64,000 nt of DNA from Escherichia coli. GTDB taxonomy: Bacteria > Pseudomonadota > Gammaproteobacteria > Enterobacterales > Enterobacteriaceae. Both the position numbers and the translations under genes were made by a program. The DNA lies in NCBI RefSeq assembly GCF_011045215.1, contig NZ_CP049201.1; one strand, 5' to 3'. Shown in pieces: positions 5,960 through 50,536 of the stretch. Position 1 is the first letter of the stretch. The number at the start of each line of letters is the position of its first letter. The notes under the pieces were generated by a model. The model saw only the letters and a program-made list of their open reading frames with translations. It was not told where the DNA came from and made no database searches.

Positions 5960-6036
<77 letters not shown>

Positions 6037-7342: not shown

Positions 7343-7580
7343 TGTGATATTCTGTATGCCGTTTTTACGGATATGACAGGGTGAGGGATAACCTCACATC
7401 CTGATTATTGACTAAGTGCGCGTTGTTCATGCCGGATGCGGCGTGAACGCCTTATCCAGCCTACAAATCATGCAAATCCAAAATATTGCAGGAGTTATGT
7501 AGGCCTGATAAGCGTAGCGCATCAGGCATTTATGCGTTTAGGGTGAGGGATAACCTCGCCCTTTTTAATTCTGAGGTGCT
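7343..7580. repeat. REP/BIME-like palindromic cluster between mltA and tcdA
   Basis: gccggatgcggcgtgaacgccttatccagcctaca and aggcctgataagcgtagcgcatcaggc REP-type palindromes; small hairpin gggtgagggataacctc present twice (7379-7397, 7541-7561). Confidence 0.6.
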
Positions 7581-10521: not shown

Positions 10522-11230
10522 AATAAATATCCTCCGGCATAGCCGGAGGTTTTTCAAATGCGCCTATAAGGCTCTCTTACCAGCCGCGCCCTAACAGGCG
10601 CACACGATCTGACATTTGCATCCAACTTCGTTACTTACGGCCCGTAAACGGGCTGCCCGGATAGGGAATCGATAACTGCTCTCCCATTTCATCCTCTTCA
10701 AGCTGGTGCTTTATGTAATCCTGTATCTTCGCCGTGTTCTTACCCACCGTATCGACGTAGTACCCTCTGCACCAGAACTCCCTGTTCCTGTATTTGAATT
10801 TCAAATCCCCAAACTGCTCATAAAGCATCAGACTGCTTTTCCCTTTCAGATATCCCATAAAGCCGGATACGCTCATTTTGGGCGGGATCTCCACAAGCAT
10901 ATGGATATGATCTGCACAGCATTCAGCTTCAAGAATCCGTACGCTTTTCCACTCACACAGCTTTCTCAAAATACTGCCTATTGCTCTACGCTTCTCTCTG
11001 TAGAACACTTGTCTTCGGTATTTTGGCGCAAAAACTATGTGATATTTACAGTTCCATCGGGTGTGCGCTAAGCTCTTTTCGTTCCCCATTGGGACCCCCT
11101 TTTGATTTCTTGTTTGACACTTGCAGTTGCCAGACCGCAAGGTGTTTTAACAAATCAAAAGGGGTTTTAATAACTGGCTCAAAGCTGAAAGCTTTCCGGA
11201 ACCCCCAGCCTAGCTGGGGGTTTTCTGTGC
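10522..11230 (-). mobile_element. IS200 (IS200/IS605 family) insertion sequence, about 0.7 kb; ends approximate
   Basis: Contains a 152-aa Y1 (HuH) transposase near-identical to Salmonella IS200 TnpA; subterminal hairpins at 10531-10549 and 11200-11222; no terminal inverted repeats expected for this family. Confidence 0.85.
10631..11089 (-). CDS. tnpA: IS200 transposase TnpA (152 aa)
   Basis: MGNEKSLAHTRWNCKYHIVFAPKYRRQ...HIHML...GSPFTGRK; track ORF is extended 17 codons upstream of the likely start. Confidence 0.93.
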   Translation of the reverse strand: MGNEKSLAHTRWNCKYHIVFAPKYRRQVFYREKRRAIGSILRKLCEWKSVRILEAECCADHIHMLVEIPPKMSVSGFMGYLKGKSSLMLYEQFGDLKFKYRNREFWCRGYYVDTVGKNTAKIQDYIKHQLEEDEMGEQLSIPYPGSPFTGRK

Positions 11231-11232
11231 AC

Positions 11233-11438
11233 AAAAAAAAGCACCGCAATTAGGCGGTGCTACATTAATCACTATGGACAGACAGGGTAAATGTACAGGA
11301 AGTGAAAAAAGGTAGCTTTGCTACCATGGTCTGAATCGCAGACCAATTGCAAACACAACAACACAACATCACAACCGTAAGCCAAAAGTTCACCAGAACA
11401 CGCATTCCGATAAAACTTTTCGTTCCGGCTCAGGAAGT
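11233..11438 (-). ncRNA. gcvB: GcvB small regulatory RNA
   Basis: Reverse complement matches recalled GcvB sequence (ACTTCCTGAGCCGGAACGAAAAGTTTTATCGGAATGCGTGTTCTGGTGAACTTTTGGCTTACGG...) ending in terminator GCACCGCCTAATTGCGGTGC + U8; divergent from gcvA. Confidence 0.93.
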
Positions 11439-15247: not shown

Positions 15248-16666
15248 TCACACTTCCTCTATAAATTCAGGTTCAGTTTGCGGGTAGAAATAACGGTACT
15301 GATAATGAATCTGTGCACGGGCTTCTTCCGGGCTGTTAAATTCCCCTACGCCATACCAACCGAACAGCGCAGCTCCTGCGACGGTCGTTTCAGCATCGTC
15401 GAGAACTTTTACCGGAATATCAAGCATATTGGCTTTAATCTGATTCCACAATGTGTTGCGACTTCCTCCACCGACTAACAATAATTCAGAGGCTTTAAAG
15501 TGGCCGATTTTTTCCAGCATCTGTAGATTGCGCTGTAATTGCGCAGTTAACCCTTCTAGCGCCGCGCGATAGAAATGCCCCCGCGTGGTATTAAGCGTCA
15601 CTCCTTGCCAGCCAGCGTTCTGACACGACAATAAATCACACTGCATTTTTACGCCATCCGCGCCAGGCGCGATCAGACGAGCCTCTTCAATCAACATTTG
15701 CCAGGGTGTTTCAGCCGTCCAGAACAGTTTTCTCACCCATTCCAGCACGCCGGATGCCAGCCATTGCATACCTGGGTTATACAACCCTGCCTGGCTATCC
15801 AGTTCGCAGGTGGAACCGGCGTACTGACTTAACAGCGAAGTATCAACCTGGGCGCTACGGACCATTAAAATTTCCCATGTACCGGAAGAGAGCACGGGTT
15901 CATTTTGGTCGGCACCAGCGCCAAAAAGGGCGAACTGGGTATCGTGACCTGCGGAAATCACCGGTATGCCAACGGGTAAGCCGAGCATTGCTGCGGCGCT
16001 GTTCTGTAGCGTACCAATCTGTTCACCCGCTTCCACCAGACGAGGGAAGAGTCGGCGTGGAATACCGGTGGCTTGTAAAATTTGCGGACTGAAATCGCGT
16101 TGCTGGATATCCAGCATCTGGCTGGTTCCGGCCATCGTGATATCAGTAGTGAATTCGCCGGTTAAACGGTGGTTAATCAGCGACGAAATAAAGAGCCAGG
16201 CGTGCGCGCGTTCCAGCAGTTGTGGATGATTTTCTTTCAACCACACCAACTTATATAACGTATTGAAACTAAAGGCTCCGACGCCAGAAATAGCCTGCAA
16301 CCGCTGTGCGGAGATCAACTGTTCAATATTGTCCATAACCGCTGCTGTTCGCGGACATTTCCAGCTAATGATCGGATAGAGCAGATTACCTTGCTTATCT
16401 ACCAGAGCGCCATCCACACCAAAGGTGGTGACGGCGATACCGCGGATGTGGCATTCAGTCAGTTCACTATTGATTTGCCGACAGCAATCAGCAAAGCGTT
16501 GCAAAATGGCGTCTAAAGACCACTGGTGCCAGGTGTTGTTTTCCATCGCGATATCGCTGGCATTAGGCGTTGAGGCGCGGGCAACAATTTTTCCCTGCCG
16601 ATTAACCGCGATGGCCCTGACATTGGTCGCGCCACAGTCGAGTACCAGGATAACTTCTTGTTTCAT
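15248..16666 (-). CDS. fucK: L-fuculokinase FucK (472 aa, FGGY kinase)
   Basis: 472-aa ORF; FGGY-type sequence; synteny. Confidence 0.93.
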
Positions 16667-16683
16667 AATCGCTCCTGCAATAT

Positions 16684-16750
16684 AGCCGGATAATATTGCT
16701 TATCCGGCTAACCACTCTTGCTTGTTCAGGCCCGGTAGCCGGAGCGACCG
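16684..16750. repeat. Palindromic hairpins in the fucI-fucK intercistronic region
   Basis: Perfect 10-bp inverted repeat agccggataa/ttatccggct (16684-16709) and gcccggt/accgggc stem. Confidence 0.4.
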
Positions 16751-29611: not shown

Positions 29612-29976
29612 CGACAGGGAGTCAGACAACGAAGTGAACATCAGGATGATGACACTTCTGAAGGACACACCAGGATGGTGTTTCAGGGAAAGGCTTCTGG
29701 ATGAAGCGAAGAGGATGACGCAGGACGCGTTAAAGGACACCTCCAGGATGGAGAATGAGAACCGGTCAGGATGATTCGGTGGGTCAGGAAGGCCAGGGAC
29801 ACTTCAGGATGAAGTATCACATCGGGGTGGTGTGAGCAGGAAGCAATAGTTCAGGATGAACGATTGGCCGCAAGGCCAGAGGAAAAGTTGTCAAGGATGA
29901 GCAGGGAGCAACAAATGTAGCTGGAATGCTGCGAAACGAACCGGGAGCACTGTGAATACAGTGCTCCCTTTTTTTA
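29612..29976 (+). ncRNA. csrB: CsrB, CsrA-sequestering small RNA
   Basis: Starts GTCGACAGGGAGTCAGACAACGAAGTGAACATCAGGATG; many repeated CAGGATG/AGGA motifs; ends with hairpin GGGAGCACTGTGAATACAGTGCTCCC + T8. Confidence 0.93.
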
Positions 29977-30020
29977 TTCCTGCTATCCTTCGCGGCAGTT
30001 TTTCTTATTGAGGTTGCTTT

Positions 30021-40482: not shown

Positions 40483-42717
40483 ATGGTTGCGGTAAGAAGT
40501 GCACATATCAATAAGGCTGGTGAATTTGATCCGGAAAAATGGATCGCAAGTCTGGGTATTACCAGCCAGAAGTCGTGTGAGTGCTTAGCCGAAACCTGGG
40601 CGTATTGTCTGCAACAGACGCAGGGGCATCCGGATGCCAGTCTGTTATTGTGGCGTGGTGTTGAGATGGTGGAGATCCTCTCGACATTAAGTATGGACAT
40701 TGACACGCTGCGGGCGGCGCTGCTGTTCCCTCTGGCTGATGCCAACGTAGTCAGCGAAGATGTGCTGCGTGAGAGCGTCGGTAAGTCGGTCGTTAACCTT
40801 ATTCACGGCGTGCGTGATATGGCGGCGATCCGCCAGCTGAAAGCGACGCACACTGATTCTGTTTCCTCCGAACAGGTCGATAACGTTCGCCGGATGTTAT
40901 TGGCGATGGTCGATGATTTTCGCTGCGTGGTCATCAAACTGGCGGAGCGTATTGCTCATCTGCGTGAAGTAAAAGATGCGCCGGAAGATGAACGCGTACT
41001 GGCGGCAAAAGAGTGCACTAATATCTACGCGCCGCTGGCGAACCGTCTTGGGATTGGGCAACTGAAATGGGAGCTGGAAGATTACTGCTTCCGTTATCTC
41101 CACCCGACCGAATATAAACGCATCGCAAAACTGTTGCATGAACGCCGTCTCGACCGCGAACACTATATCGAAGAGTTTGTCGGCCATCTGCGCGCTGAGA
41201 TGAAAGCTGAAGGCGTTAAAGCTGAAGTGTATGGTCGTCCGAAACACATCTACAGCATCTGGCGCAAAATGCAGAAAAAGAACCTCGCCTTCGATGAGCT
41301 GTTTGATGTGCGTGCGGTACGTATTGTCGCCGAGCGTTTACAGGATTGTTATGCCGCACTGGGGATAGTGCACACTCACTATCGCCACCTGCCGGATGAG
41401 TTTGATGATTACGTCGCTAACCCGAAACCAAACGGTTATCAGTCTATTCATACCGTGGTTCTGGGGCCGGGTGGAAAAACCGTTGAGATCCAAATCCGCA
41501 CCAAACAGATGCATGAAGATGCAGAGTTGGGTGTTGCTGCGCACTGGAAATATAAAGAGGGCGCGGCTGCTGGCGGCGCACGTTCGGGACATGAAGACCG
41601 GATTGCCTGGCTGCGTAAACTGATTGCGTGGCAGGAAGAGATGGCTGATTCCGGCGAAATGCTCGACGAAGTACGTAGTCAGGTGTTTGACGACCGGGTG
41701 TATGTCTTTACGCCGAAAGGTGATGTCGTTGATTTGCCTGCGGGATCAACGCCGCTGGACTTCGCTTACCACATCCACAGTGATGTCGGACACCGCTGCA
41801 TCGGGGCAAAAATTGGCGGGCGCATTGTGCCGTTCACCTACCAGCTGCAGATGGGCGACCAGATTGAAATTATCACCCAGAAACAGCCGAACCCCAGCCG
41901 TGACTGGTTAAACCCAAACCTCGGTTACGTCACAACCAGCCGTGGGCGTTCGAAAATTCACGCCTGGTTCCGTAAACAGGACCGTGACAAAAACATTCTG
42001 GCTGGGCGGCAAATCCTTGACGACGAGCTGGAACATCTGGGGATCAGCCTGAAAGAAGCAGAAAAACATCTGCTGCCGCGTTACAACTTCAATGATGTCG
42101 ACGAGTTGCTGGCGGCGATTGGTGGCGGGGATATCCGTCTCAATCAGATGGTGAACTTCCTGCAATCGCAATTTAATAAGCCGAGTGCCGAAGAGCAGGA
42201 CGCCGCCGCGCTGAAACAGCTTCAGCAAAAAAGCTACACACCGCAAAACCGCAGTAAAGATAACGGTCGTGTGGTGGTTGAAGGTGTCGGTAACCTGATG
42301 CACCACATCGCGCGCTGCTGCCAGCCGATTCCTGGAGATGAGATTGTCGGCTTCATTACCCAGGGACGCGGTATTTCAGTACACCGCGCCGATTGCGAAC
42401 AACTGGCGGAACTGCGCTCCCATGCGCCAGAACGCATTGTTGACGCGGTATGGGGCGAGAGCTACTCCGCCGGATATTCACTGGTGGTCCGCGTGGTGGC
42501 TAATGATCGTAGTGGGTTGTTACGTGATATCACGACCATTCTCGCCAACGAGAAGGTGAACGTGCTTGGCGTTGCCAGCCGTAGCGACACCAAACAGCAA
42601 CTGGCGACCATCGACATGACCATTGAGATTTACAACCTGCAAGTGCTGGGGCGCGTGCTGGGTAAACTCAACCAGGTGCCGGATGTTATCGACGCGCGTC
42701 GGTTGCACGGGAGTTAG
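40483..42717 (+). CDS. relA: GTP pyrophosphokinase RelA, (p)ppGpp synthetase I (744 aa)
   Basis: 744-aa ORF; sequence recognised; synteny with mazEF. Confidence 0.95.
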   Translation: MVAVRSAHINKAGEFDPEKWIASLGITSQKSCECLAETWAYCLQQTQGHPDASLLLWRGVEMVEILSTLSMDIDTLRAALLFPLADANVVSEDVLRESVGKSVVNLIHGVRDMAAIRQLKATHTDSVSSEQVDNVRRMLLAMVDDFRCVVIKLAERIAHLREVKDAPEDERVLAAKECTNIYAPLANRLGIGQLKWELEDYCFRYLHPTEYKRIAKLLHERRLDREHYIEEFVGHLRAEMKAEGVKAEVYGRPKHIYSIWRKMQKKNLAFDELFDVRAVRIVAERLQDCYAALGIVHTHYRHLPDEFDDYVANPKPNGYQSIHTVVLGPGGKTVEIQIRTKQMHEDAELGVAAHWKYKEGAAAGGARSGHEDRIAWLRKLIAWQEEMADSGEMLDEVRSQVFDDRVYVFTPKGDVVDLPAGSTPLDFAYHIHSDVGHRCIGAKIGGRIVPFTYQLQMGDQIEIITQKQPNPSRDWLNPNLGYVTTSRGRSKIHAWFRKQDRDKNILAGRQILDDELEHLGISLKEAEKHLLPRYNFNDVDELLAAIGGGDIRLNQMVNFLQSQFNKPSAEEQDAAALKQLQQKSYTPQNRSKDNGRVVVEGVGNLMHHIARCCQPIPGDEIVGFITQGRGISVHRADCEQLAELRSHAPERIVDAVWGESYSAGYSLVVRVVANDRSGLLRDITTILANEKVNVLGVASRSDTKQQLATIDMTIEIYNLQVLGRVLGKLNQVPDVIDARRLHGS

Positions 42718-42729
42718 GCCGAAACTTGC

Positions 42730-42775
42730 TCGTATCTACAATGTAGATTGATATATACTGTATCTACATATGATA
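42730..42775. promoter_or_regulatory. mazEF promoter/operator region with palindromes
   Basis: atctacaatgtagat perfect palindrome and repeated tatctaca motif directly upstream of mazE. Confidence 0.5.
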
Positions 42776-42794
42776 GCGGTTTGAGGAAAGGGTT

Positions 42795-43043
42795 ATGATC
42801 CACAGTAGCGTAAAGCGTTGGGGAAATTCACCGGCGGTGCGGATCCCGGCTACGTTAATGCAGGCGCTCAATCTGAATATTGATGATGAAGTGAAGATTG
42901 ACCTGGTGGATGGCAAATTAATTATTGAGCCAGTGCGTAAAGAGCCCGTATTTACGCTTGCTGAACTGGTCAACGACATCACGCCGGAAAACCTCCACGA
43001 GAATATCGACTGGGGAGAGCCGAAAGATAAGGAAGTCTGGTAA
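42795..43043 (+). CDS. mazE: Antitoxin MazE (82 aa)
   Basis: [27 protein letters not shown]...; stop overlaps mazF start. Confidence 0.93.
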
Positions 43044-43378
43044 TGGTAAGCCGATACGTACCCGATATGGGCGATCTGATTTGGGTTGATTTTGACCCGA
43101 CAAAAGGTAGCGAGCAAGCCGGACATCGTCCGGCTGTTGTCCTGAGTCCGTTCATGTACAACAACAAAACAGGTATGTGTCTGTGTGTTCCTTGTACAAC
43201 GCAATCAAAAGGATATCCGTTCGAAGTTGTTTTATCCGGTCAGGAACGTGATGGCGTAGCGTTAGCTGATCAGGTAAAAAGTATCGCCTGGCGGGCAAGA
43301 GGAGCAACGAAGAAAGGAACAGTTGCCCCAGAGGAATTACAACTCATTAAAGCCAAAATTAACGTACTGATTGGGTAG
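43043..43378 (+). CDS. mazF: Endoribonuclease toxin MazF (111 aa)
   Basis: [52 protein letters not shown]... Confidence 0.95.
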   Translation: MVSRYVPDMGDLIWVDFDPTKGSEQAGHRPAVVLSPFMYNNKTGMCLCVPCTTQSKGYPFEVVLSGQERDGVALADQVKSIAWRARGATKKGTVAPEELQLIKAKINVLIG

Positions 43379-43448
43379 TGTTACTAACTCACTTCTATTC
43401 TGGTCACAGGTTTCCACCTGACGGACCCGCAATTTTCAGGACATTCTA

Positions 43449-44240
43449 ATGAATCAAATCGACCGTTTGCTCACTATTATGCAGCGCCTGCGCGACCCGG
43501 AAAACGGCTGCCCGTGGGATAAAGAGCAGACATTTGCCACCATTGCGCCTTACACCCTTGAAGAAACCTACGAAGTGCTGGACGCCATCGCCCGTGAAGA
43601 TTTTGACGATCTGCGTGGTGAACTCGGCGATCTGCTGTTCCAGGTGGTGTTTTACGCCCAAATGGCTCAGGAAGAAGGGCGCTTTGACTTTAATGATATT
43701 TGCGCTGCGATTAGCGATAAATTAGAGCGTCGCCATCCGCATGTTTTTGCTGACAGTTCTGCCGAAAACAGTAGTGAAGTGCTTGCCCGTTGGGAGCAAA
43801 TCAAAACCGAAGAGCGCGCGCAGAAAGCGCAGCATTCGGCGCTGGACGATATTCCTCGTAGTTTACCGGCTTTAATGCGGGCGCAAAAAATCCAGAAACG
43901 TTGCGCCAACGTTGGCTTCGATTGGACGACGCTTGGTCCGGTAGTCGATAAAGTCTACGAAGAGATCGACGAGGTGATGTACGAGGCACGGCAGGCTGTT
44001 GTCGACCAGGCTAAACTGGAGGAGGAAATGGGGGACCTGCTGTTTGCCACGGTCAATCTGGCTCGTCATTTAGGGACAAAAGCGGAAATCGCATTGCAAA
44101 AAGCGAACGAAAAATTCGAGCGTCGTTTTCGCGAAGTGGAGCGTATTGTTGCCGCGCGTGGACTGGAAATGACAGGTGTTGACCTCGAAACAATGGAAGA
44201 AGTCTGGCAACAGGTAAAACGGCAGGAAATTGATCTCTAA
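43449..44240 (+). CDS. mazG: Nucleoside triphosphate pyrophosphohydrolase MazG (263 aa)
   Basis: 263-aa ORF; synteny after mazF. Confidence 0.93.
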   Translation: MNQIDRLLTIMQRLRDPENGCPWDKEQTFATIAPYTLEETYEVLDAIAREDFDDLRGELGDLLFQVVFYAQMAQEEGRFDFNDICAAISDKLERRHPHVFADSSAENSSEVLARWEQIKTEERAQKAQHSALDDIPRSLPALMRAQKIQKRCANVGFDWTTLGPVVDKVYEEIDEVMYEARQAVVDQAKLEEEMGDLLFATVNLARHLGTKAEIALQKANEKFERRFREVERIVAARGLEMTGVDLETMEEVWQQVKRQEIDL

Positions 44241-47550: not shown

Positions 47551-48456
47551 TTACCAGCGACCGGACGCGCCGCCACCGCCAGAAGAACCGCCCCCGCCGC
47601 TAAATCCGCCGCCACTTGAGCCTCCACCGGAAGAGGGTGAAGAAGAACCTTTTCTTGAAGCTCTTTCTTTACTGAGTTTTTTGTATTTGGCGCGTAGCTT
47701 TTTATTGACGATAAGCCAAAAAATAACCAGTGGTACGATCGCAAAAGGCGTTAACATACCGCAGGCAACGATTAAATTGGTCCATGGTCCTGGCTCGGCA
47801 ACATAGAGGAATACCATCCCGTAAATGGCGCCAGTGAGAGTGATCCAGGGTAAATTCGACGGATCGGTAAAAACAATAAAATATGAAAGTACCGCCAGCA
47901 ATATAATTACAGCAAGCGATAATGGAATAGGGGGATTGATACTGTAATAATCCCCCCTGTCTTCCGGTAATTCACCATTCAACAGAAGCGCGCCGATATT
48001 TTCGCTTGCCAGTGTTAATCCACCCATCAGGTCATCACTTTTGAAGGCAGGGATCAATATATCCCTGATAATTTTCGCCGCTTGCAGGTCGGTAACCACC
48101 CCTTCCAGCCCGTAGCCAACCTCAATACGAACAGCATGATCCTCCCAGGCAACCAGAAGTAAAATACCATCGTTTCTCTGCTTATCTCCCAGTTTCCAGC
48201 TATCAAAAACGCGTGTTGCATATTGTTCAATGGAATCGTCTCCGGTGGACGGCACTACTAATACAGCGACCTGCGCCCGTGTTTTATGTGTAATATCCTG
48301 CAGTTGCTGTGTCAGTGATTGTTGTTCAGAAGTGCTTAACGTACCAGTAATATCGGTCACCTGTTGGCGCAGTTCCGGCACAGCAATTTGCTGGGCAAGC
48401 CCAGGAAGGCACCACAAAGTGAATAGAATAAAGATTAAGCGCATTACGATCACCAA
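47551..48456 (-). CDS. TPM-domain (YgcG-like) membrane protein, paralog 1 (301 aa); signal peptide, TPM domain, TM segments, Gly/Ser-rich C-terminus ending SGRW
   Basis: Signal-like N-terminus; TPM-like block VTDITGTLS...VAVLVVP...IEQYATRVFDSWKLGDK...DGILLLVAWEDHAVRIEVGYGLEG; hydrophobic segments; tail GGGSSGGGFSGGGGSSGGGGASGRW. Alternative start at 48444. Confidence 0.8.
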   Translation of the reverse strand: MVIVMRLIFILFTLWCLPGLAQQIAVPELRQQVTDITGTLSTSEQQSLTQQLQDITHKTRAQVAVLVVPSTGDDSIEQYATRVFDSWKLGDKQRNDGILLLVAWEDHAVRIEVGYGLEGVVTDLQAAKIIRDILIPAFKSDDLMGGLTLASENIGALLLNGELPEDRGDYYSINPPIPLSLAVIILLAVLSYFIVFTDPSNLPWITLTGAIYGMVFLYVAEPGPWTNLIVACGMLTPFAIVPLVIFWLIVNKKLRAKYKKLSKERASRKGSSSPSSGGGSSGGGFSGGGGSSGGGGASGRW

Positions 48457-49598
48457 CGGCCGGATGAACCGCCGCCTCCTGAAGAACCGCCACCACCGCG
48501 GAAAGAATTTCTCGACGAAGAGCGAGAGTGAGCATTACGATTCCCCGTTTTCCTGTTGCTTTTTTCTCCTGACCCCAGCTTAAGATTGCCAGTAAATTTG
48601 GCCACAATGATCAGCAGAACGATGCCAGCAATGGTTATTGGGCCGATAAAATGATCAATTAACCCAATAATTGTTGAGATGAATGCAATATCTTTATTAC
48701 TGGCGAACACCAGGCACCATCCCACAATAATTATCAGCATCACGACAAACAATGAATTTCGTCCTGATTCACGAACCTGCGGAGTCTTCTTTTGTTTTTT
48801 CACTTTAGAGTTTTTATTTTTTGGGGTCAGCATCATAGGAAATACGCGGCACATATTAAAAACTACCGCGAGACGCTGCTTGCAGGTTGTTGCTAACAAT
48901 AAACTAAAACAAACGACCGATACCCGCCGAATGATGACATCGTCCTGAAAGGAGAAAAACCAGACCATAGGGGTAATCATCGATATCATCCATATGCCAC
49001 GCCGTGGGCGGCTGGCAAATCGCCAGAGGACAACGATGGCAACGATCATCAGCAGTGTCCAGGCAAGACATGGCAGCGAACGTTGCGGATTAGCAAACAG
49101 ATGATTGGCTAAAGCATCCAAAGGGCTAAGGTTCGCTTTGATATGGGTAAACTGTGCGATGCTTTCAATTCCGCCCGTTAATCCAGCAAAGAGATTGTTT
49201 TTTTCGAATTCTGGCTGCATATGGTAACGAACAATTTGCGCAGCTTGTTCCGGCGGCAACATCTCTTCCAGTCCATGTCCAATCTTCATTGACGCCAGCC
49301 CTTCCGGCCATACGACGAGAATTAAGATACCTTCGCCATATCGCTTCTCTCCAACGGGTTTCCAGTGATATACCCCGTATCTCTGCGAGGCTGCAAGTTT
49401 AATGTTTTTGCCCCCTGTGGTCGGCGTAACCAACACGGCCACCTGGAAGTGGTTTTGCTGCTCGAGAGTCTGTAATTGTTGAGTTAAAGCAGTTTGTTCT
49501 TCTGTCGTTAATGTCCCGGTTAAGTCAGTTACTGAAGGCCATTGTTCAGCGAATACCTGAAAACCGCATAGCATCAGAAGTAAGAGAAAAATACGCAT
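48450..49598 (-). CDS. TPM-domain (YgcG-like) membrane protein, divergent paralog 2 (382 aa) with extended membrane region and SGRW tail
   Basis: N-terminus MRIFLLLLMLCGFQVFAEQWPSVTDLTGTLTTEEQ...; several hydrophobic segments, Lys-rich linker (KNKNSKVKKQKK), tail RGGGGSSGGGGSSGRW; overlaps paralog 1 start by 7 nt. Confidence 0.8.
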   Translation of the reverse strand: MRIFLLLLMLCGFQVFAEQWPSVTDLTGTLTTEEQTALTQQLQTLEQQNHFQVAVLVTPTTGGKNIKLAASQRYGVYHWKPVGEKRYGEGILILVVWPEGLASMKIGHGLEEMLPPEQAAQIVRYHMQPEFEKNNLFAGLTGGIESIAQFTHIKANLSPLDALANHLFANPQRSLPCLAWTLLMIVAIVVLWRFASRPRRGIWMISMITPMVWFFSFQDDVIIRRVSVVCFSLLLATTCKQRLAVVFNMCRVFPMMLTPKNKNSKVKKQKKTPQVRESGRNSLFVVMLIIIVGWCLVFASNKDIAFISTIIGLIDHFIGPITIAGIVLLIIVAKFTGNLKLGSGEKSNRKTGNRNAHSRSSSRNSFRGGGGSSGGGGSSGRW

Positions 49599-49612
49599 AT
49601 CAATTCCTTTTG

Positions 49613-50536
49613 TTACCAGCGCCCGGAAGCGCCACCGCCACCAGATGAACCGCCACCACCGCTGAAATTGTCATTGTTGAATGAAGAGGATGACGATGAT
49701 GAATAGTGGGAGGAAGAATTGCTTCTTGTATGGCGTGATGGCTGGTTGACATCACGCATCAAATCCCGAACTTTTTTGCCGAAGGGGGTAAAAGCGATGG
49801 CGACAGCCAGGAACGGTGTGGCGAAGCAGAGTAATGTTGCGAGTACTCCCCAGCTTCCGCTGAAGCCTGCTATAGGTAAAACAAAGGCCAGTACAATAGC
49901 TGCGAAGCAAATTACTCCCAGCGTTTTGATATATCCTCTGGCAGAAATAAACGTCAGTACTATCGCCCAGACTAACAATGCCCACCAACCGCTAAAGGGC
50001 AAAGGGTGATCGGTCGGTGTTATCGTTGCTAAATTATTCCCCGTAAGACGACTTTCAATATCGCTGATCCCCTTTTGTAAACCGCCAGCCAGGTCGCCTT
50101 TTTTAAATGCAGGAATAATACTGTTGCGAATAATTTTCCCGGACTGTGCATCCGTAATAATACCTTCCAGCCCGTAACCGATTTCAATACGCACGGTATG
50201 ATCCTGCCAGGCGACTAACAGTAGAACGCCATCATCACGGTCTTTATCACCCGGTTTCCAGCTATCGAATACCCGCGTTGCGTACTGCTCGATGGTTTCA
50301 TCGCCTGTTGTATCAACCACTAACACGACCAACTGTGCGTGGTTTTTTTGCGTCAGGGCTTTAATCTGGTTGGTCAGGGTGTTTACTTCGCTGTTTGTTA
50401 ATGTGCCGGTTAAGTCATTCACATACTTGGGGGATTCAGGTACTGGAATTTGTGTGGCAAACACAGATGAACAGAAGAAAGCCATAAGGAAGATAAAATT
50501 TCGCATAGAACTTCCCCGCTTAATGAGCATTAGCAT
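49613..50536 (-). CDS. TPM-domain (YgcG-like) membrane protein, paralog 3 (307 aa; likely start at 50506)
   Basis: VNDLTGTLTNSEV...LVVLVVDTTGDETIEQYATRVFDSWKPGDKDRDDGVLLLVAWQDHTVRIEIGYGLEG, closely similar to paralog 1; tail SGGGGSSGGGGASGRW. Confidence 0.8.
   Translation of the reverse strand: MLMLIKRGSSMRNFIFLMAFFCSSVFATQIPVPESPKYVNDLTGTLTNSEVNTLTNQIKALTQKNHAQLVVLVVDTTGDETIEQYATRVFDSWKPGDKDRDDGVLLLVAWQDHTVRIEIGYGLEGIITDAQSGKIIRNSIIPAFKKGDLAGGLQKGISDIESRLTGNNLATITPTDHPLPFSGWWALLVWAIVLTFISARGYIKTLGVICFAAIVLAFVLPIAGFSGSWGVLATLLCFATPFLAVAIAFTPFGKKVRDLMRDVNQPSRHTRSNSSSHYSSSSSSSFNNDNFSGGGGSSGGGGASGRW

Follow-up and report, generated by a model that had tools for sequence, protein, structure and literature searches.

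The chromosomal mazEF toxin-antitoxin module of an Escherichia coli strain is intact and encodes proteins identical to those of K-12

The stretch of DNA analysed here (64,000 nucleotides, referred to as the window) carries between 39 and 47.5 kb the genes barA (minus strand), rlmD, relA, mazE, mazF, mazG, pyrG and eno, and from barA to eno this is the order in which the E. coli chromosome has them near position 2.91 Mb of K-12. The gene relA (40483-42717, plus strand) encodes a GTP pyrophosphokinase of 744 aa with the Pfam domains HD_4, RelA_SpoT, TGS and ACT_4, and is annotated at the matching regions of K-12 and O157:H7 as well. Its stop codon TAG occupies 42715-42717 and is followed, after a spacer of 77 nt, by mazE (42795-43043, plus strand) and mazF (43043-43378, plus strand), in agreement with the preliminary description of this DNA, which had located the module downstream of relA. 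The next gene, mazG (43449-44240, plus strand), encodes a nucleoside triphosphate pyrophosphohydrolase of 263 aa (Pfam MazG, 1.6e-39) and begins 70 nt after the end of mazF. The position of mazEF between relA and mazG is confirmed by the open reading frames, by the Pfam domains and by the annotation of both K-12 and O157:H7.

Both genes start with ATG, mazE (antitoxin and autorepressor, 82 aa) behind a GAGGA ribosome-binding site at 42783-42787 and mazF (ACA-specific endoribonuclease toxin, 111 aa) behind AAGGA at 43029-43033. The stop codon TAA of mazE (43041-43043) and the ATG of mazF (43043-43045) share one base in the motif TAATG, and the lengths and the 1-nt overlap that had been given earlier are those of the reading frames. 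Two small co-oriented genes, antitoxin first and overlapping by one base, form the layout of a toxin-antitoxin system of type II. MazE matches the Pfam family MazE_antitoxin PF04014 (52.9 bits, 3.5e-14, residues 6-51) and the NCBIfam equivalog NF007312 (196.2 bits against a cut-off of 113), and has the AbrB/MazE-type N-terminal DNA-binding domain and the C-terminal MazF-binding tail of such antitoxins. MazF matches PemK_toxin PF02452 (84.8 bits against a cut-off of 23.1, 5.9e-24) and the equivalog NF007386 (227.4 bits against a cut-off of 120). With both scores above the equivalog cut-offs, and with MazE identical over 82/82 residues to the crystallised E. coli MazE (PDB 1MVF_D) and MazF over 111/111 residues to the crystallised E. 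coli MazF (PDB 3NFC_A), the initial assignment to the known mazEF module is borne out. Through its identity to 3NFC, MazF also has R29 and T52, which we take to be catalytic residues. The DNA-contact residues of MazE, K7, R8, W9, N11 and R16 (PMC4333400), are all found in the protein of the window, and MazF retains E24, which is needed for RNA cleavage, the E24A mutant being inactive (PMC5888573). The window has two ACA sites in mazE and nine in mazF, and the same counts were given for K-12 (Nikolic et al. 2018).

The integrity of the module was assessed by aligning positions 42660-43470 with the corresponding segment of MG1655 using MAFFT (811 columns). Over these 811 bp the window and MG1655 are separated by 8 substitutions and 0 gaps. 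One of the substitutions, at 42725 in the relA-mazE spacer, precedes the operator by 4 nt. Three lie in mazF at 43120, 43132 and 43150 (codons 26, 30 and 36), and the other four are in the mazF-mazG spacer, leaving mazE without any. A frameshift or premature stop was looked for in this alignment and none was found; the alignment is free of gaps and the changes in mazF are all synonymous, so that the module is intact, as had been proposed. Gene integrity is accordingly a direct observation on this locus, as are the identity of the proteins and of the operator and the conserved synteny.

The spacer upstream of mazE contains the inverted repeat ATCTACAATGTAGAT (ATCTACA-A-TGTAGAT, 42734-42748) with arms of 7 nt and a centre of 1 nt. 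The preliminary description had placed this promoter palindrome correctly; as an account of the operator it was incomplete, since the palindrome is only one of three MazE-binding sites. According to Zorzini et al. 2015 the operator is 47 bp long and binds MazE dimers at three sites, 'c', 'a' and 'b' (PMC4333400). Positions 42729-42778 (plus strand) agree base for base with the initial 50 nt of their 'cab' oligonucleotide (PMC4333400), whereas 0/100 shuffles matched in the control. The site 'c' oligonucleotide, GTATCTACAATGTAGATTG, lies at 42732-42750 and holds the palindrome. Site 'a', TTGATATATACTGT (42748-42761), contains the perfect palindrome ATATAT at 42751-42756 and is the site behind the published MazE-DNA model (PMC4333400). 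Within site 'b' lies a third arm, ATCTACAT (42762-42769), which belongs to an 8-nt inverted repeat of 100% identity, as it is perfectly complemented by ATGTAGAT (42741-42748). The first arm, ATCTACA (42734-42740), also pairs with TGTAGAT (42742-42748), and GTATCTACA forms a direct repeat with two copies 28 nt apart. As the middle arm complements both outer arms, either pairing is possible, which makes the arrangement an 'alternating palindrome'. This term for the mazEF promoter reportedly comes from Marianovsky and co-workers, in work of 2001 that is also said to give the details of the P2/P3 promoters and the Fis site.

The strength of this pattern was evaluated with 20,000 shuffles of the AT-rich 77-nt spacer. 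When 7 nt or more were required per arm and no more than 20 nt were allowed for the loop, an inverted repeat appeared in 7.2% of the shuffles and one with 8-nt arms in 1.7%, while the three-arm arrangement ATCTACA...TGTAGAT...ATCTACA, of the form X...rc(X)...X, appeared in 0.025% (5/20,000). The palindrome by itself is only modestly significant, and the weight rests on the three-arm arrangement and on the exact match to the literature. The same three-arm 7-mer pattern occurs in other 77-nt stretches of the window, at 2211-2234, 16666-16684, 51733-51746, 51948-51973, 53086-53095 and 56202-56227. Two of them, beginning at 51733 and 51948, fall within queE or at its end, a short way upstream of the CRISPR region, and that at 53086 belongs to the second array.

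The sense promoter can be placed through a published construct. The 'Sense_MazEF' fragment, which comprises the 75 bp upstream of the promoter +1 (PMC8749433 Data Set S1), maps to 42691-42765 with one mismatch, the substitution at 42725. As this fragment ends at 42765, transcription of mazEF likely starts at about 42766, judged from the design of this construct, and TATACT (42754-42759, plus strand) at -12 to -7 would be the likely -10 hexamer. With such a start the operator would cover about -37 to +13, a span that fits repression by occlusion. The abstract of Zorzini et al. puts the 'a' palindrome ~10 bp upstream, which agrees with this start (PMC4333400). A generic promoter scan of 42300-43600 missed the documented mazEF promoter. 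It returned promoter-like sites at 42770-42799, overlapping the mazE ATG, and at 42898-42925, inside mazE, and a generic terminator scan of the same region returned two minus-strand terminator-like sites inside mazF; as these counts are at the level of shuffles (1.4 and 1.5 expected), the sites were given no weight.

On the opposite strand, the RefSeq annotation of K-12 has ameF (b4844), described as "small antisense RNA aMEF", at 2911051-2911450 opposite mazEF, a feature that the earlier reading of this DNA had overlooked. Its coordinates were moved from K-12 to the window through the gap-free alignment, which would put an RNA of about 400 nt on the minus strand at 42684-43083, with an approximate 3' end. 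So placed, it runs antisense to mazF over its initial 41 nt, to the whole of mazE, to the promoter with its operator and to the final 34 nt of relA. aMEF arises from a weak, non-canonical promoter inside mazF and its 400-nt band is visible only in an RNase III mutant (PMC8749433). The published 75-bp fragment with this promoter maps to 43083-43157 (minus strand, mazF codons 14-39) and the published Northern probe to 43035-43078, which is consistent with a start near 43082/43083. A search of 42000-44000 against Rfam at gathering thresholds gave no RNA family match, aMEF included. Matches at this level elsewhere in the window were CsrB, GcvB, STnc490, ES036 and one tRNA, with the coordinates 29619-29978 (plus), 11233-11438 (minus), 11099-11222 (minus), 7464-7506 (plus) and 5963-6036 (minus). 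An ORF of 146 aa, antisense to mazE and mazF (42764-43204, minus strand), gives no hit to Pfam at a threshold as loose as E <= 1 and was regarded as mechanical because its start lies upstream of the aMEF start site.

To place the module within the species, 5,426 complete E. coli genomes were searched, of which 5,425 gave some match to the 1.5-kb span from the 3' end of relA to the 5' end of mazG. The full-length relA-mazEF-mazG span is present in 4,415 of these 5,425 genomes, and about 1,000 genomes match in the flanks only, so that ~19% of complete genomes are without mazEF. A total of 4,506 complete E. coli genomes carry the 751 bp around mazEF annotated as mazE/mazF, and those of the window are 100% identical to those of O157:H7 TR01 and PapM-32-1. 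In the O25:H4 strain 18044 the spacer between relA and mazG is 95 bp long (record positions 719-813) and has no trace of mazEF. Its homology to the window ends at the relA stop codon and restarts at ~43408-43414, ~40 nt before mazG, with ~57 bp standing in place of ~690 bp of the window (42718-43407). Directly after the relA stop this spacer has a strong 12-bp hairpin that is missing from the window (102 nt folded; z-score -6.3 against shuffles). mazEF is accessory in E. coli and behaves as a presence/absence island. In E. coli SW07163 (NZ_CM129852.1) the match is broken at query position 726, corresponding to 43025 of the window near the 3' end of mazE, and falls in two places; this suggests an insertion or rearrangement disrupting mazE and that natural disrupted alleles exist. 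Across the 25 kb from 30000 to 54999 the best match among the 5,426 genomes is 98.8% (PapM-32-1), and the source strain is without a close representative in this collection; it may belong to Shigella or to a lineage that has not been sampled.

This distribution bears on whether the intact genes represent a selfish or accessory element that was inserted between relA and mazG and is kept by addiction and not for service to the host under stress or phage attack. Such a reading draws on the incomplete occurrence of the full span, on the spacer without mazEF in strain 18044 and on the nature of the indel, in which ~690 bp and ~57 bp with a strong hairpin alternate between the relA stop and the last ~40 nt before mazG. 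A comparison with PADLOC-DB v2 gave no match for MazE, MazF or MazG at E <= 0.001, which adds to it, since no defence model recognises the module and its link to phages rests on the literature only. That literature points the other way, as mazEF was reported to limit the growth of P1 and T4 and T4 possesses the counter-measure Alt, which ADP-ribosylates MazF (2025 review, PMC11869752). Moreover, no plasmid appears among the 4,509 matches to the mazEF DNA of the window, and no mobile-element signature flanks mazEF within the window. We consider an addiction-driven insertion possible although rather doubtful, and it concerns the role of the module and not its identity, so that it is compatible with the reading of the locus as the ordinary chromosomal mazEF. 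The physiological role of mazEF itself is disputed in the literature, both between programmed death and reversible stasis and with regard to phage exclusion.

The comparison with K-12 also raises the question of whether the module is regulated differently, because all three synonymous differences in mazF sit in the 75-bp fragment with the aMEF promoter, namely at -68 (43150), -50 (43132) and -38 (43120). Five silent mutations in this promoter (pMUT), which jointly lowered its activity, shifted the transcripts towards mazEF, away from mazE, and cut the levels of both proteins to about half (PMC8749433). One of these five knock-down mutations is the A-to-G change that the window has at -38 (43120). 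A weaker aMEF promoter allele might accordingly shift the ratio of mazE to mazEF transcript and lower the amounts of MazE and MazF, although several observations speak against it. The remaining four knock-down positions (-35, -14, -11 and -8) are wild type in the window, and the published data count -38 only as part of the five-mutation set. The allele is also common, as 1260 of the 4401 complete E. coli genomes with this stretch (~29%) have its exact form; among the matches listed (12 of 4,401), every one at 96.0% identity has 3 differences, as K-12 does. Furthermore, the poorly conserved aMEF promoters of Salmonella and Leptospira were still active in E. coli (PMC8749433), and since such divergent promoters work in the published assay, a real effect of the -38 change is rated unlikely. 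In our view a differently regulated module is improbable, and the narrower claim that the -38 change alone weakens antisense transcription, as a natural regulatory polymorphism within synonymous sites of a toxin gene, would be slightly less probable. If it were true, a large sub-population of E. coli and Shigella would set the levels of MazE and MazF differently from K-12. As the allele differs from that of K-12 at three positions, the degree of antisense regulation could be different. The insert of the 'Shig_asmazEF' oligonucleotide pair ('Shig_asmazEF_F'; PMC8749433 Data Set S1) has exactly the sequence of this allele; the main text of that paper has no 'Shig_asmazEF' result and uses 'Shigella' only in another context.

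That mazE and mazF are decayed or chance reading frames and not functional genes is refuted by the alignment and deserves next to no credence, as both proteins agree at every residue with ones characterised by experiment, no difference from K-12 within the genes changes an amino acid, the operator equals that of K-12 and the synteny is conserved. We conclude, with a probability of about 97%, that the locus is mazEF (chpA), the type II toxin-antitoxin module of the E. coli chromosome, intact and at its usual site between relA and mazG. Because the proteins and the operator are identical to those of K-12, results obtained there on MazF activity, on repression by MazE and on operator binding can be transferred to this strain, and it is from that K-12 work that we infer every biochemical and regulatory step of the module in the window.

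On the strength of the 100% protein identity, MazF would act as a ribosome-independent endoribonuclease which cuts at ACA in single-stranded RNA, and MazE would neutralise it by binding MazF dimers through a disordered C-terminal tail, with one MazE dimer expected to keep two MazF dimers inactive. MazE would also be labile to ClpAP and Lon, so that a stop in synthesis should free MazF; being unstable, the antitoxin would have to be made continuously. The regulation of the operon may likewise follow that of K-12. MazE, aided by MazF, would occupy the operator sites c, a and b (42729-42778) and repress its own operon. MazF would be predicted to cleave its own mRNA, at the 2 ACA sites of mazE and the 9 of mazF. 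The antisense RNA aMEF, started inside mazF, would modulate the amounts of the mazE and mazEF transcripts and proteins.

The relevance of toxin-antitoxin loci to stress and phage responses, which the preliminary description had put forward, is fair as a statement of the literature (PMC11869752); the same review also notes that the exclusion of P1 was not reproduced in K-12. The same description had also remarked that mazEF shares 10 kb with a CRISPR/TPM region, and the distances agree with this, as the TPM/LemA block begins 4.2 kb and the CRISPR repeats 8.9 kb downstream of mazF. The block (47551-51122, minus strand), downstream of eno, consists of three genes with a TPM domain and one LemA family gene, and as these are found at the same positions in O157:H7 TR01, there is no sign of a special association with mazEF. 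The middle TPM ORF (48450-49598, 382 aa) is open in the window and annotated in O157:H7 TR01 as a pseudogene with an internal stop. Downstream of queE (51295-51966) lies a first type I-E CRISPR array (52306-52578) with five repeats of GTTCCCCGCGCCAGCGGGGATAAACCG at a spacing of 61 nt, and a second type I-E array (53032-53170) holds three more degenerate copies that are 66-90% identical to the reference repeat. Between these arrays and mazEF there are no cas genes. A functional link between mazEF and its TPM/LemA or CRISPR neighbours is not indicated.

The strain thus carries a complete mazEF that is K-12-identical at the protein level, an ordinary and already explained feature which matters little in itself. 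The module is already known from textbooks, and what is added here is descriptive only, namely the full operator, the antisense RNA with its allele and the accessory distribution. For annotators, the presence of mazEF is a property of the strain and not a given, and it may be useful to count aMEF and the complete operator with its three sites as parts of the locus.

Among known systems, the mazEF of K-12 (chpAI/chpAK; b2783/b2782) is the closest counterpart, with the same relA-mazE-mazF-mazG locus, identical proteins, an identical 50-bp operator, the same 1-nt overlap, equal ACA counts and an aMEF (b4844) that maps without gaps, and it differs by eight single bases over 811 bp. The chromosomal paralogue chpBIK of E. 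coli (ChpS/ChpB) has the same families, an AbrB-type antitoxin and a toxin with the PemK/MazF fold, in the same gene order. However, the proteins of the window stay well short of the equivalog cut-offs for ChpS and ChpB (34.6 against 101 bits and 55.2 against 129 bits), and the locus is different. The plasmid systems kis-kid (parD of R1) and pemIK (R100) share the toxin fold, with Kid (PDB 1M1F) matching MazF at E = 7.6e-9, and the same logic of an autoregulated two-gene addiction module. They are plasmid-borne and distant in sequence, whereas the mazEF DNA of the window gave no match on a plasmid (0 of 4,509).
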